This document shows, piece by piece, positions 1-5,206 of a stretch of DNA of 5,207 nt; positions within the stretch are counted from its first letter, which is position 1, and each line of letters begins with the position of its first letter. The notes under the pieces are model-generated. The model worked only from the letters and a program-made list of their open reading frames with translations. It was not told the origin of the DNA and made no database searches. The position numbers and the translations under genes were made by a program. The stretch comes from Promethearchaeota archaeon. GTDB lineage: Archaea > Asgardarchaeota > Thorarchaeia > Thorarchaeales > Thorarchaeaceae. The stretch covers positions 1 through 5,207 of the forward strand of contig JALVPN010000083.1 in assembly GCA_027031765.1 (NCBI GenBank), given 5' to 3'.

Positions 1-2067
1 TCCCGTACGTGCTGGTTTTACCTGAACGACACCGTGACCGGCAGACCCGTGACATCGGCCACGGTCACTGCGGTGTTCACCGGTACCCAGACGGTGCTTG
101 TCGCGAACGGCACTCCGGGCTTCTTCACAGGCACGGTCAACAGCACTGGGCTTGCAGTGGGCCAGTACTCCATGGTCGTACGGGTGTACGAGCAGAACCA
201 CGACTTCCTGGACCTGGAACTGCTGGTCAACGTGGTGCCGAGGCCAACAGCGCTCCGTCTGAAAGGAGGCCAGCAGTCTCTCACAGTATACTATGGTGAC
301 GTGCTCAACGTCACGGTAGAGTACATCGACCTCGTTTCCAGTGACTATGTTGCCGGGGCGAACGTGACCTTTGCCCTCTCTGACATCGCAGGCCAGGCCG
401 TGTTGGGACCCGACGGCACACATCGGGTGCTCATTGACACCTCCGGCCTCTCGGCCGCATCGTACAGCCTCAGACTCGTCGCCCATCACTACGGCCATGT
501 CACACAGGTCCGCAGCATCTCTGTGACCGTCCTCGCACTCCCAGTCGACGTGGGCGTGGACCAGACCCTGCTTGTGGGGCATCACGGTGACACTGTGACG
601 GCGACGTTCTACCTCCACGACACACACAACGACAGGCCAGTACCTGGTGCATCCGTGTCCGTCAAGTGGGAGGGCGGCAACCACTCGTGGACAGACTTTC
701 ATAACGGGTCGTACGTGGTGCGCATCTACCTGAACCAGACAGTACCGCAGCTCTACGAGCTCGTTGTGACGTTCTATAGACTGGACCACGAGTCGGAATC
801 GGTCAGACTCGACGTACTCCTCGCGGCCACTCCGACCACTGTATTGGGGCCGACGGAACTGTCAATACCCGTCAACGACACGGCAACCCTGGCCTACACG
901 GTCGTCAATGGCCTGAATGGAGAGACGGTCACAGACATCTCGGGGACGGCATACTGGCAGGGCATAGGCGAGTCCGTACTGACCCCGATAGCCAACGGCA
1001 GTTTTGTCCTCGACGTGCCGGGCGACCTGCCGATGGGCAGTTACGAGATTGCGGTAAGGTTCACGGGTGTGACATACTCGATACCCATCACGAACCTCAG
1101 GGTGACCGTGCGCACCGTCAGGACGGCACTGGTGGTCCAGAACACGACGGTCTCGACATCGCCGGGCTCGGTCATCATCTTGACAGTGACATATCTTGAT
1201 GTCGACCACAACAGGGGCATCTCAGGGGCGGATGTCGAGCTCGTCTACAATGAGGATGACATGACGTACTATGCTGACCGGACGACAGAGCACAACGGGG
1301 TCTACACCTTCGAGTTCCTGGTCACCGGTGCCCGTACGTTCACGATGACGGCCATCTTCTCAAAGGAGGACTACGACACCAAGACCGTGGTCTTCACGAT
1401 AGAGTCCGACATAACAGCAGGACAGCGATTGGCACAACAGGTCACCTTCGCCGGGAGCACAATCGTCGTCGTTGTTGCCGTCCTCGGGTTCCTCTATGCC
1501 AAGATATGGAGCGTGCCCAGGGAGATACGGATCATCAACAGGATGATGGGTGCACTCCGGAAGGGCAAGGTGCCCAAGCCCACGAAGATGCCGTCACGTG
1601 GTGACGTCCTCCTCGGGTTCATGAACGAGGACCTGGCGCCAGTGGGGATAACCAAGACCCCCGAAGATGCTGTGGACCACACCGTTGAGGCCATCGTACC
1701 AGAGGTCGACGCCCTACTGGACAGGCTGGTAGAGATCACCGGTCTCGGCCCAGATGAGATAGCAGCCTTCAGGACCGACCTCGCAAGGATGCCCGCCAGT
1801 GAACGTGTGGGCTTCCTCAGGGAGGTCATCACACAGGAGGAACAGCGCCGTGCACAGGCACTGGCAGAGGCGGAGGCGGAGGCCAAGGAGGTCGAGGAGG
1901 CGGAGCTCTTAGGCGCAATGCCCGAAGAGCTTGAGGCCATCCGCAGGAGACTACGGGAGAAAGGGATTGAAGACTCTGAGATAGACCTCATAATAGAGCA
2001 GGCAAAGAAACTGACCAAGGCCGACTTCAAGGCCCTCCTCGAGAGCATGGGGATCCGCATGGACTAG
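1..2067 (+). CDS. Large single-pass cell-surface/S-layer-like glycoprotein with Ig-like beta-sandwich repeats, a C-terminal TM helix and a cytoplasmic tail (5'-truncated)
   Basis: The frame is open from base 1 (SRTCWFYLNDT then the 34..2067 ORF), so the true start lies upstream of the window. The ectodomain is T/V-rich with alternating beta-strand patterns and 11 N-x-S/T sequons by hand count. A hydrophobic segment VTFAGSTIVVVVAVLGFLYA (1441-1500) is followed by a basic stretch (KIWSVPREIRIINRMMGALRKGK, positive-inside) and an acidic helical tail. GC3 is about 82% in a 60-codon sample. The tail style resembles giant membrane proteins of Asgard archaea as I recall them (inference). Confidence 0.9.
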   Translation, partial: SRTCWFYLNDTVTGRPVTSATVTAVFTGTQTVLVANGTPGFFTGTVNSTGLAVGQYSMVVRVYEQNHDFLDLELLVNVVPRPTALRLKGGQQSLTVYYGDVLNVTVEYIDLVSSDYVAGANVTFALSDIAGQAVLGPDGTHRVLIDTSGLSAASYSLRLVAHHYGHVTQVRSISVTVLALPVDVGVDQTLLVGHHGDTVTATFYLHDTHNDRPVPGASVSVKWEGGNHSWTDFHNGSYVVRIYLNQTVPQLYELVVTFYRLDHESESVRLDVLLAATPTTVLGPTELSIPVNDTATLAYTVVNGLNGETVTDISGTAYWQGIGESVLTPIANGSFVLDVPGDLPMGSYEIAVRFTGVTYSIPITNLRVTVRTVRTALVVQNTTVSTSPGSVIILTVTYLDVDHNRGISGADVELVYNEDDMTYYADRTTEHNGVYTFEFLVTGARTFTMTAIFSKEDYDTKTVVFTIESDITAGQRLAQQVTFAGSTIVVVVAVLGFLYAKIWSVPREIRIINRMMGALRKGKVPKPTKMPSRGDVLLGFMNEDLAPVGITKTPEDAVDHTVEAIVPEVDALLDRLVEITGLGPDEIAAFRTDLARMPASERVGFLREVITQEEQRRAQALAEAEAEAKEVEEAELLGAMPEELEAIRRRLREKGIEDSEIDLIIEQAKKLTKADFKALLESMGIRMD

Positions 2068-2618: not shown

Positions 2619-3086
2619 TCACAGTCGCCTCCTGAACTCGTCGACATCTGGCATCTCCATGGGAACGTACTTTCCCTTCTCCCAGTGGAGGACTTCGTAC
2701 TCGCCTGTGTTTGCAAGAAGACTGCCTATGGTGAATGCAGCAGTGACCGGACACGCCAAGGCAAGGGTGAGGGGACGCTCACCTATGCGTGACTTGATCC
2801 GCTCCATGACTGCCGCAGCATCCTCAGACCACCGGATAATCTCCTTGGATGAGAGTTCCTTTGGTGTGCCAATCTCGGCGACAACACAGTACCCGGCTCT
2901 TTCCACATCGGTCTTCACATCGTGACTGAAACTCACAACCACTGCGGGTTGCCTATCAAAACAGGCATGCAGACTATACGGGGCCTTCCCACCGTTCCCG
3001 AAGAGGCCCGCAATCTCCTTGTATACCGTCCGGATTGTCACAACGCTACCAACAAGACTTGCAACGTGAAACAGAATCTCTGCCAT
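2619..3086 (-). CDS. N-terminal hydrophobic helix + half (C-terminal lobe) SAVED-like domain protein, 155 aa
   Basis: ATG at 3086 (the track uses the in-frame TTG at 3095). The N-terminus ILFHVASLVGSVVTI is hydrophobic. The C-terminal ~110 aa contain AVVVSFSHDV...LTLALACPVTAAFTIGSLL...YEVLHWEKGKY, matching the SAVED C-lobe pattern as I recall it (strand-S, then HLFxAxPxxxAFxxG, a terminal aromatic strand and a final Y). The clear paralogue at 3535-4008 confirms it is coding. Confidence 0.75.
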   Translation of the reverse strand: MAEILFHVASLVGSVVTIRTVYKEIAGLFGNGGKAPYSLHACFDRQPAVVVSFSHDVKTDVERAGYCVVAEIGTPKELSSKEIIRWSEDAAAVMERIKSRIGERPLTLALACPVTAAFTIGSLLANTGEYEVLHWEKGKYVPMEMPDVDEFRRRL

Positions 3087-3123
3087 CGCGTACAAGACTC
3101 CCGCCGCACACAGAGTACAGTGA

Positions 3124-3138
3124 CTTATTGCTTTTTTG
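3124..3138 (-). promoter_or_regulatory. Weak BRE/TATA-like element for the minus-strand half-SAVED gene
   Basis: The minus strand reads CAAAAAAGCAATAAG: a purine-rich BRE-like run plus an AT-rich box ending 38 nt before ATG 3086. A mirror ATAAG (3496-3500) lies 35 nt before ATG 3535 of the divergent gene. The match to the archaeal consensus is poor. Confidence 0.25.
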
Positions 3139-3195
3139 CCATCTGGCTCGCAGGGCCGGACATGGTCTAGTACACAACACCCACACAGATACGCT

Positions 3196-3297
3196 GATTG
3201 TGGACTGGGAACTCAACACTGTGACGTGTACGTCCCCGACTCATCGAAGAGAGCGTTGTCACTCCGTTGACTGTGGACTGAGTGGATCTCAACACTG
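3196..3297. repeat. Imperfect direct repeat pair (26 and 29 nt) separated by 47 nt
   Basis: GATTGTGGACTG---GGAACTCAACACTG (3196-3221) vs GACTGTGGACTGAGTGGATCTCAACACTG (3269-3297): 24/26 aligned bases identical plus one 3-nt indel. Confidence 0.8.
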
Positions 3298-3534
3298 GGG
3301 CCCGTCACGCCCGCCCGCTACGTCCGGGGGTCTGCGATGGCTGCATGGGGTCCAGACGGAGCTGGAAACAGTCGAGGCCAACCTACGTCCCTGTCGGCCC
3401 TGCAAGATTCCCCCTGCTCACGGCACACATTCTCCCACAAGACCGTGTCCAACACCGTGCCAGCCCCACATGGCTGGTGCACGCCCGTCAAGTCCATAAG
3501 GCGGGGTGTGTCACAGCAGGAAAGAGGCATACCA

Positions 3535-4008
3535 ATGAGGACCTGGGCGGAAACCGAGAAGAGGACACTAAGAATGGGCAGGATTACAGTCACTCTCCCA
3601 GTGGAGATTGCGGCTTCTCTCCAGAGGCAGGCGCCGCCAACCCGCAGGAGAATGAGGCGAGCAGCAATTGCAGTGAGCATCACGAGGGATATCGCCAATG
3701 ACCTGCAGCAGGAAGGACACCACGTGATTGCTGACATCGCCACTCCCCGTCCCGTCCCGCCAGCCTACATGCCATACATTGCCATGGACGCGTCTCTCGC
3801 TATCGACAGGATACGGCGCGCGGTGCGGGCAAAGACCCTGTGGGTCGCACTGTGCTGCCCCGTGGCCATCGCCTTCATGATGGGCATTCTCCTCGGGCAC
3901 CACTCCACCTACCGACTACTGCACTGGGAAAACGGTTACAAGTCACTCCCTGCGTACAGCCTCGACCGCTTCCGCAAACGCTGCACAGAGATCCGCCAGT
4001 CCACCTGA
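3535..4008 (+). CDS. RHH-like N-terminus + half (C-terminal lobe) SAVED-like domain protein, 157 aa (144 aa if it starts at ATG 3574)
   Basis: ATGs at 3535 and 3574 are each preceded by AAGAGG; the track's 3337 extension looks non-protein-like. The C-terminal part AAIAVSITRDI...LWVALCCPVAIAFMMGILL...YRLLHWENGY aligns to the 2619-3086 protein with a single gap. MGRITVTLPVEIAASLQRQA resembles the beta-strand and helix A of CopG/Arc/MetJ ribbon-helix-helix proteins. Confidence 0.75.
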   Translation: MRTWAETEKRTLRMGRITVTLPVEIAASLQRQAPPTRRRMRRAAIAVSITRDIANDLQQEGHHVIADIATPRPVPPAYMPYIAMDASLAIDRIRRAVRAKTLWVALCCPVAIAFMMGILLGHHSTYRLLHWENGYKSLPAYSLDRFRKRCTEIRQST

Positions 4009-4459: not shown

Positions 4460-4777
4460 TTGTGGAGCATACTCCTGTTCATCGTTGGCTCAATTGTGAC
4501 AGTAGCGGGCGCAGCATGTGGGGCCATGTACCTCCGAGAGAGATACGGGGCCCGCCCAGTCGACTCCTATGATGTGGAGGGCCTCTTCAAGAGGAAAGGC
4601 CTCTGGGGACTGTTCCGGTCGGGAGGTCTCCAGTGCGTGATATGCGGTGAGCCGGTGACATTTGCAAACTTGGGGACGATTGCGGAGGATGAGTCGACGG
4701 GTGACGTCGACCTGATCTGTCGGCAGCCCGTGTGCCTGAGCCGATATATTGCCAGAGTTGAAGACGACATCCTATAG
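4460..4777 (+). CDS. Small membrane-anchored Cys4 zinc-ribbon protein, 105 aa
   Basis: N-terminal TM-like segment ILLFIVGSIVTVAGAACGAMYL followed by basic residues, then CVICG-x22-CRQPVC (CxxC...CxxxxC). The start is TTG with no clear SD, so the start position is uncertain; the frame is open from 4367. Confidence 0.7.
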   Translation: MWSILLFIVGSIVTVAGAACGAMYLRERYGARPVDSYDVEGLFKRKGLWGLFRSGGLQCVICGEPVTFANLGTIAEDESTGDVDLICRQPVCLSRYIARVEDDIL

Positions 4778-4891: not shown

Positions 4892-5206
4892 CTACACAAG
4901 TCTTGTCTGCTCCACCTCTGGTTTCTGACCCGTAGCACCTTGGATCAGGGTTACTGCATCCTCCTCGCTGGAAATCTGGCGTGCCCCCTGTGACAACAAA
5001 TAGATAGGGAGCTGTGCTGACGGCTTGGTTCGGTCTACAGGCCTGACCACAAACAGTGGACGACCAAGGTCGACAGCATATCTCGCTTGATGACGTGTTC
5101 CACTTCTCATGCTACCCTCAACAATAATTGTTGATTCTGCTAGGGCAGCAATTATCCGGTTCCTGTGGACGAAGTTCCCAAGGGACACCTGGGATTCAGG
5201 CCCGTA
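4892..5206 (-). CDS. dprA: DprA/Smf-family (SLOG superfamily) Rossmann-fold protein, C-terminal part (5'-truncated)
   Basis: The frame is open to the window edge (YGPESQVSLGNFVHRNRIIAALAESTIIVEGSMRSGTRHQARYAVDLGRPLFVV). This matches the DprA signature FxxRNRIIxxL...VVEA...SG...A...GRxVF. It ends about 45 aa after GRPLFVV, so there is no C-terminal winged-helix domain. Confidence 0.9.
   Translation of the reverse strand, partial: YGPESQVSLGNFVHRNRIIAALAESTIIVEGSMRSGTRHQARYAVDLGRPLFVVRPVDRTKPSAQLPIYLLSQGARQISSEEDAVTLIQGATGQKPEVEQTRLV

Follow-up and report, generated by a model that had tools for sequence, protein, structure and literature searches.

What does an archaeon do with two head-to-head genes whose products, at about 155 amino acids (aa) each, have room for only half of a SAVED domain? 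SAVED domains are central sensors in CBASS and type III CRISPR signalling. The two genes, called A and B here, lie in a stretch of 5,207 nucleotides (nt) from a Promethearchaeota archaeon of the GTDB family Thorarchaeaceae (contig JALVPN010000083.1, assembly GCA_027031765.1; the whole stretch is referred to as the window). The original prediction, made from the sequence alone, saw in them a possible undescribed nucleotide-sensing module of a probable Asgard archaeon, in which one product would be linked to the membrane and the other would bind DNA. The Asgard origin is backed by the source names of orthologues in the same GTDB family. Our analysis favours, at a probability of roughly 55%, a heterodimeric split SAVED that binds cyclic oligoadenylate, most likely as a sponge or ring nuclease, and leaves little room for the two separate outputs first proposed.

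The genes occupy two head-to-head open reading frames (ORFs), one of 158 aa on the minus strand (2619-3095) and one of 223 aa on the plus strand (3337-4008), and in both cases translation most likely begins at an internal ATG (Table 1). The ORF of gene A is open back to a TTG at 3095, which yields the 158-aa form (P0001/P0003), and the more likely start is the ATG at 3086 (MAE...), the A-type orthologues beginning with MAE, MAD or MPD in the alignment. Gene B is open from an ATG at 3337, the start used by gene callers and public assemblies; the alignment with 10 B-type orthologues begins at the ATG at 3535, which is preceded by a GAGG 8-11 nt upstream, and the 223-aa call is probably over-extended. 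Judging by their alignments, A and B are real paralogues: the earlier count by hand (38 identities over 112 positions) agrees closely with BLASTP (36/104 identities, i.e., 35%, one gap, E 3e-21) and MAFFT (39 invariant columns), and all the shared motifs first listed are present (VS..D...D, V.A.I.TP, DA....RI, L.[LV]AL.CPV..AF..G.LL and Y..LHWE.G.Y). The N-termini are unrelated, as had also been noted, with a hydrophobic helix in A and a short strand-plus-helix segment in B.

On profile and model evidence, A and B are each one SAVED-type lobe and not a generic CARF domain, because the profiles match the second lobe only and the predicted fold matches SAVED C-terminal lobes. The Pfam SAVED profile (PF18145, cut-off 26.2 bits) matches A at 26.6 bits and the 157-aa form of B at 27.0 bits; these matches are real but borderline, and in both proteins are restricted to profile positions 77-186 of 190, i.e., the second lobe. 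At E <= 0.1, 19 of the 20 family members match the same profile. Along the same lines, the NCBIfam SAVED model NF033611 covers A and B at positions 138-255 of 261 only, with 23-24 bits, under its cut-off of 33, while the 104-position PADLOC profile 'SAVED4--SAVED' (PADLOC profile names are also the source of the group name 'SAVED4' used below) matches both end to end at E ~3e-9. Compared with the PDB, the family profile found the viral SAVED ring nuclease AcrIII-2 (9r8s) at E 1.6e-14, with separate matches in both lobes, and CalpL at E 1.5e-6. A single-lobe hidden Markov model (HMM) built here gave two matches in every two-lobed SAVED relative and a single one in each window protein; neither A nor B holds two fused CARF-like lobes in one polypeptide.

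The fold prediction is consistent with this assignment. An AlphaFold2 model of A, built with 17 homologues, reached a predicted local distance difference test score (pLDDT) of 87 and has a long helix at the N-terminus (residues 3-31), followed by a compact domain in which a five-stranded Rossmann-like sheet carries one extra N-terminal strand. In an unbiased search independent of Foldseek, the 12 top matches of this model were all SAVED C-terminal lobes (from Cap5, AcrIII-2, TIR-SAVED, CalpL, Cap4 and Cap14), with Z 8.9-12.8, 111-123 residues aligned, and a root-mean-square deviation of 2.2-3.7; the next match had Z 6.9, and CARF domains scored 6.6-6.8. A second look at the fold gave SAVED lobes up to Z 13.3 and CARF up to 7.8, and Foldseek agrees, its top matches being SAVED C-terminal lobes. 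The single lobe claimed for each protein is thus borne out by the Pfam, NCBIfam and PADLOC profiles, by the single-lobe HMM, and by the fold searches, with SAVED on top and CARF lower wherever monomer A was compared with both.

Members of the A/B family are very rare: among 1.84 billion protein cluster representatives, an exhaustive HMM search (E <= 1e-10) returned 13 A/B clusters, the other matches being two-lobed CalpL-like, 2TM-SAVED and AcrIII-2-like proteins and a separate 'mini' family of single lobes. The exhaustive search was needed to see this much: a word-indexed protein search with A retrieved only A itself, and one with the family alignment retrieved five proteins. All traceable members come from Thorarchaeota (the source names of the orthologues read Candidatus Thorarchaeota). 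Of 86 genomes in the same GTDB family, 6 carry the pair, each a species of a different genus, and nothing close was found outside that family among 400 genomes of the phylum. The lone out-of-family match in those 400 genomes (L050, G388:C9:1945-2184, E 4e-8) is weak, covers the C-terminal portion of the lobe, and contains one in-frame TGA. A scan of viral contigs, run with patterns from the A-types alone and thus unable to prove absence, found no relative, and a metagenome scan found one further copy of an already known locus. Among sequencing runs, none of RNA is listed for the window, and the only DNA run that contains it is a hydrothermal-vent metagenome, which may be its source.

Exactly one A-type gene, which encodes the N-terminal hydrophobic helix, and exactly one B-type gene are present in every locus. 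They are divergent in seven loci (the window, G031, G013, G007, G014, and the L031 and L035 groups), stand in tandem, A then B, with a 14-nt gap in another (L029/L030), and are fused in the order A-B into one protein of 336-348 aa in the sole fused orthologue (G004). No further neighbour gene is common to the loci; therefore, the two genes move, and are retained, together. On average, A-types are 42% identical to one another, B-types 34%, and A-types to B-types 29%, and across the six genera the pair is conserved at 29-49% identity with its motifs retained.

The 1:1 co-occurrence, the fusion, a predicted complex, and the colinearity of the fusion with two-lobed SAVED domains together suggest that A and B most likely form a heterodimer. 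Heterodimerisation had been offered earlier as one of two options, and it gains both from the natural fusion in one relative and from an ESMFold2 A-B complex with an interaction score (ipSAE) of 0.91, against 0.00 for the best control; among solved complexes 58 of 80 reach this mark, and among mismatched pairs 2 of 110. At least 90% of contacts recur across the runs, and the pLDDT of the partner is 86 or more. The predicted interface is symmetric: each chain contributes its beta-hairpin, its C-terminal helix, and the helix that comes after the Cys-Pro...Ala-Phe..Gly motif (residues 76-154 in B). In the alignment, the fusion is colinear with two-lobed SAVED domains. Since MAFFT did not place the B-types on its C-half, the fusion was folded with an alignment of distant two-lobed SAVEDs only; the resulting model is mediocre (pLDDT 63, predicted template modelling score 0.69), and its matches to AcrIII-2 across both lobes (E 8e-12, TM 0.74-0.75 by target) and to CalpL filament structures serve as support only. 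Both the fusion and the tandem form argue for one joint A-B unit.

The surroundings of the relatives link the pair to type III CRISPR. Among the eight loci with at least 5 kb of context, five have type III genes within 10 kb, a count that is not a formal test because the loci are related, and two of them are embedded in, or directly beside, a type III effector operon. For instance, in G031 the pair sits between an effector operon (Cas10, five RAMP proteins and a Csm2-like small subunit) and a CRISPR array. The tandem pair of L029 lies between cas6 and cas1-cas2-cas4 in a Cmr locus with Csx1, and the pair of L034 adjoins a gene for a Can2-like CARF nuclease, with Cas10, RAMPs and Csx19 4.5 kb away. 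The G004 fusion is ~700 nt from a CRISPR array and adjoins a Csx1-like gene, with a CARF-HEPN-CARF gene and Cas10 within 8 kb, and in G013 Cmr genes lie ~8 kb from the pair. The window's own genome (G000) has RAMP genes, three type III-like CRISPR loci on contigs C139, C69 and C6, and a CRISPR array on C63. Cas10 retains the GGDD cyclase motif on C139 and C69; the C6 protein has HD motifs, no GGDD, and a weak palm-domain match only. SMODS/CD-NTase was not found in this genome (95% completeness). The earlier suggestion that the signal is made elsewhere is therefore plausible: the genome encodes GGDD Cas10 and no CD-NTase was detected in it, and relatives of the pair stand in type III loci. As for candidate accessory genes, three proteins encoded in or beside Thorarchaeota type III loci, of 290, 370 and 586 aa (L014:10431-11303, minus strand; L014:11995-13107, plus; L013:13171-14931, plus), had no Pfam or PADLOC match.

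In the reading we prefer, one A and one B would lie side by side and together form the pseudo-symmetric counterpart of a complete SAVED domain. This unit would bind cyclic oligoadenylate, probably cyclic tetra-adenylate (cA4), made by a Cas10 encoded elsewhere in the genome; units would probably stack head to tail around the ligand, as do Csx15 dimers and the SAVED monomers of the CalpL/AcrIII-2 group, and the pair would damp or reset the signal as a sponge or slow ring nuclease. Binding of a cyclic oligonucleotide is proposed by analogy, from homology and the type III CRISPR context. A regulator role is favoured because A and B lack an enzymatic effector domain and the related loci already carry Csx1- or Can2-type effectors, with which ring nucleases typically co-occur (bioRxiv 10.1101/2024.09.24.614671). 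There are precedents in Csx15 and AcrIII-2/Crn5, which have a SAVED-type fold and serve as sponges or ring nucleases without an effector domain (PMC13148439, PMC12751052). The SAVED domains of AcrIII-2/Crn5 and CalpL are arranged head to tail, with cA4 sandwiched between the units, and cleave this ligand (PMC12751052, PMC11417357). Csx15 is a homodimeric single lobe whose dimer equals one SAVED monomer, and it stacks on cA4 as a sponge or slow ring nuclease (PMC13148439; bioRxiv 10.64898/2026.10.26.761840).

In concept, Csx15 is the closest system. Like A and B, it is small (~120-160 aa), has no effector domain, adopts a five-stranded fold that lacks one CARF alpha-beta unit, and is linked to type III loci with cA4-activated effectors; Csx15-Csx15 fusions also exist. 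However, a single gene supplies its homodimer, whereas A and B are diverged paralogues that always occur together, the A-types add an N-terminal helix, and the catalytic His that follows beta-1 in Csx15 is not conserved. No Csx15-named model matched A or B in Pfam, NCBIfam or PADLOC at E <= 1, where the presence of such a model is itself uncertain, and no Csx15 chain was among the matches listed from the PDB sequence and fold searches.

AcrIII-2/Crn5 is the closest solved relative, both by the profile match given above and by fold (Z 12.1). Like the pair, it lacks an effector domain; it holds cA4 between units arranged head to tail, and the fused orthologue matches both of its lobes. It is one polypeptide with two old, diverged lobes, whereas A and B are separate genes of a more recent duplication. 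In A and B no His is conserved at the position equivalent to its H128, where the alignment is approximate, and the residue before Cys-Pro is Ser or Ala; basic residues are conserved on the C-terminal helix, where an RFR/K motif of the A/B family aligns with the R96-K99 region of AcrIII-2. The CalpL and 2TM-SAVED proteins ('SAVED4' group), each found twice by the single-lobe profile, have in both lobes the motifs L.L..CP...AF..G and YHW..G.Y that are common to A and B, and CalpL is a type III CRISPR cA4 sensor. Unlike these proteins, which join Lon protease or transmembrane modules to a fused two-lobed sensor, A and B are single lobes with extensions of ~35-40 residues.

Other stand-alone lobes resemble A and B in size. 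The mini family matched by PADLOC 'SAVED4--SAVED' (P0028, P0030, P0041 and P0042, with the tandem protein P0033; metagenomic) consists of single lobes of 120-165 aa, several of which have an N-terminal helix followed by a polybasic stretch. It forms a separate clade (100/100 support) on a long branch, matches the profile at 1e-26, as opposed to 3e-9 for A/B, and showed no paralogue pairing of the A/B type in the data examined. The halves of P0033 are each other's closest relatives, which points to an independent duplication and fusion. Further small SAVED-only clusters were found at 125 aa, mostly from Archaea (with Thermoproteota the commonest phylum), and at 182 aa, from bacteria. The word 'undescribed' in the original prediction is therefore right only in part: stand-alone single lobes are known (Csx15, 'SAVED4--SAVED'), but no account of obligate pairing between diverged paralogues turned up in the papers that could be searched. 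The term 'heterodimer' is absent from the two Csx15 papers and the ring-nuclease survey, one of these three also lacks 'paralog', and the remaining papers retrieved under 'heterodimer' deal with other proteins. The advance is incremental, as the fold, the ligand class and the stand-alone single lobe were already known. The A/B family is a compact system for asking what asymmetry adds to a cyclic-nucleotide sensor, it bears on whether effector-less SAVED units are sponges, nucleases or assembly-driven effectors, and it brings a further accessory component to type III CRISPR in Asgard archaea, where these systems have been little studied.

Several observations weigh against a cyclic-oligoadenylate sponge or ring nuclease. 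No cas gene is present in the 5.2-kb window or in 6.7 kb of a near-identical scaffold, so that the effector-less SAVED within a type III locus is seen for relatives and not for the window copy within these 5.2-6.7 kb, and cas genes are likewise missing near the pair in G007 and G014. The conserved hydrophobic helix on A is unexpected for a soluble sponge. AA and BB homodimers could score as high as AB, because A and B are paralogues and the ipSAE covers AB only, and part of the complex score may stem from SAVED and CARF dimers that the model has memorised. Lastly, the catalytic His residues of AcrIII-2 (H128) and Csx15 (H8/H11/H13) are not conserved. In the loop after the near-invariant beta-1 Ser, the A-types have Q, H, R, V or G followed by D, N or S, and the B-types an invariant Arg-Pro, its Arg (R51 in gene B, after the beta-1 Ser/Thr) being a clade-specific feature. 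True nuclease activity is thus doubtful, and a sponge or pure binder seems likelier than an efficient nuclease. Conservation is asymmetric, with Trp89, Arg155 and the N-terminal helix in A only and Arg51 in B only, a pattern that fits a pseudo-symmetric unit with one specialised site.

The helix of A could instead be the output. The A-B unit would then be the sensor of a membrane-tethered effector, whose ligand-driven head-to-tail filaments would cluster the helices at or in the membrane and disturb it, as has been proposed for 2TM/3TM-SAVED (Cap14), Cam1 and Csx23. The helix (pLDDT 65-73 in the AlphaFold model) is kept in all nine A-types, fusion included, has an acidic N-terminus, is succeeded by a basic stretch, and lies outside the predicted A-B interface. 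Its 19-residue Kyte-Doolittle mean is 1.79 in the window protein and 1.7-1.9 in four orthologues, the window's included; profile relatives include 'SAVED4--SAVED_TM' and 2TM-SAVED proteins, and fusions of Csx15 to transmembrane helices have been reported (bioRxiv 10.64898/2026.10.26.761840). However, the hydrophobic run spans just 14-17 residues, with one helix per heterodimer, and the A-type orthologues as a whole range from 0.9 to 1.94, as opposed to 2.0-2.6 for 2TM-SAVED controls. Four of the nine carry Asp, Glu or Lys within the helix and fall to 0.9-1.35, and the loci already have Csx1- or Can2-type effectors. The membrane link first claimed for A is therefore doubtful, because the helix is short and charged in those four orthologues, and we hold the membrane-effector reading to be a serious, if tentative, second choice. 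Just as tentative is the view of the pair as an obligate heterodimeric SAVED, a living intermediate between a Csx15-like homodimer and the fused SAVED, serving, by virtue of its asymmetry (the invariant Arg of B; the Trp, Arg and N-terminal helix of A), as a single-site, membrane-associated cyclic-oligoadenylate sensor whose output would be its own assembly and not an enzymatic activity. If this were true, one archaeal family would have preserved the intermediate in divergent, tandem and fused arrangements alike.

It is unlikely, in our estimate, that the pair answers a nucleotide signal unrelated to type III CRISPR, or plays another role in this genome, and that its proximity to cas genes in relatives reflects no more than general clustering in defence islands. 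Three of the eight loci (the window, G007 and G014) have no cas genes in the DNA examined, G007 placing the pair among restriction-modification genes, between two methylases, and one in four Csx15 genes comes from a genome that has no type III system (bioRxiv 10.1101/2024.09.24.614671). Against this stand the other five loci, two of them in or beside an effector operon, the failure to find a CD-NTase in the window's genome, and the nature of the nearest characterised relatives by sequence, i.e., the cA4-binding SAVED domains of CalpL and AcrIII-2. As a separate observation on G007, a gene a few kb from the pair (L016:4569-6539, minus strand) encodes a 656-aa protein with a small GTPase domain of Arf/Roc/Ras type, in a region that also holds a C5 DNA methylase and an Eco57I-type IIG restriction-modification enzyme.

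Less probable still is the effector/regulator pair of the original prediction, with A linked to the membrane and B acting as a ligand-controlled ribbon-helix-helix (RHH) transcription factor, each as a separate homodimer. The window B protein does have a weak RHH_5 match (E 0.007), but it spans 19 residues, scores 16.5 bits against a cut-off of 26, and is missing from 19 of the 20 family members. A CopG/RHH domain was rejected on this score and because the two RHH helices do not fit the segment. Residues 1-40 of B align instead with the inter-lobe linker of the fusion and correspond also to that of AcrIII-2, and DNA binding by B is accordingly not upheld. The divergent genes do flank a long intergenic region, much longer than in the orthologous loci, and it contains an imperfect direct repeat of ~30 nt at 3192-3221 and 3265-3297 (CG[CT]TGA[TC]TGTGGACTG...GGA[AT]CTCAACACTG, with a 3-nt indel; copies 73-76 nt apart). 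This repeat is unique in the genome, differs from the genome's CRISPR repeat, and could be an operator pair; however, it has no counterpart in the intergenic regions of the orthologous loci, and the fused and tandem forms speak for a joint unit rather than two homodimers. An Rfam search of the window gave no match.

That A and B are eroded fragments of a once full-length SAVED effector gene, as the half of the SAVED profile covered by each might suggest, is contradicted by two intact ORFs with motifs kept across six genera, by their likeness to the same C-terminal lobe and, above all, to each other, by their place in the tree outside the CalpL/2TM-SAVED lobes, and by a head-to-head rather than collinear gene order, and we give it next to no credence.

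The origin of the pair was traced in an unrooted maximum-likelihood tree of 72 lobes, in which many forks are poorly separated because the alignment has 134 columns only, and whose root affects the following inferences weakly. The A-types form one clade (100/99 support) that includes the N-half of the fusion. Its C-half joins the B-type gene from its own sub-lineage (L035/P0007). A separate clade (97/97), with A and B outside, unites both lobes of CalpL and of the 2TM-SAVED proteins, and the halves of the tandem mini-family protein are sisters. A and B are closer to each other than to any lobe of a full SAVED, and both resemble the C-terminal lobe. By this phylogeny, the pair is the product of a separate duplication of a single-lobe gene, followed by fusion in one lineage, and does not derive from a broken old SAVED gene, because the tree places it outside the CalpL/2TM-SAVED clade. 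The tree also suggests that lobe duplication and fusion happened independently at least three times. According to a 2026 preprint, SAVED domains arose by duplication and fusion of a Csx15-like single lobe. The Thorarchaeota family supplies the step that this account lacks, since its diverged paralogues stay unfused in some genomes and stand in tandem or are fused in close relatives, and it shows within one lineage how two-lobed sensors can arise.

Table 1. Position of the half-SAVED genes, their parts and the region between them in the 5,207-nt window.
Feature	Coordinates	Strand	Remarks
Gene A (A-type half-SAVED)	2619-3086	-	155 aa from the most likely start, ATG 3086; A-type clade with 100/99 support
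SAVED-lobe domain of A	2622-2990	-	residues 36-158; pLDDT 89-97
N-terminal hydrophobic or amphipathic helix of A	3003-3089	-	residues 3-31 of the 158-aa form
Promoter region between the divergent genes A and B	3087-3534	.	448 nt
Gene B (B-type half-SAVED)	3535-4008	+	157 aa from the most likely start, ATG 3535
N-terminal strand-plus-helix segment of B	3535-3654	+	residues 1-40; counterpart of the inter-lobe linker of the fusion
SAVED-lobe domain of B	3655-3984	+	residues 41-150; Pfam and NCBIfam SAVED matches

Besides the pair, three other genes were noted in the window. The one at 4892-5206 (minus strand), complete as L003:866-1804, encodes a 312-aa DprA-like protein (DNA_processg_A, SLOG superfamily) and is not conserved next to the pair in other genomes. 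The gene at 4460-4777 (plus strand) encodes 105 aa with an N-terminal hydrophobic helix and a zinc-ribbon-like C-terminus (CxxC...C), and no family matched it above threshold. On the other side of the pair, a gene at 34-2067 (plus strand), truncated by the contig end, encodes a large protein, probably located at the surface, in which Ig-like/prealbumin-like domains are repeated, a single transmembrane helix lies near residue 480, and the cytoplasmic tail is acidic and coiled-coil-like.

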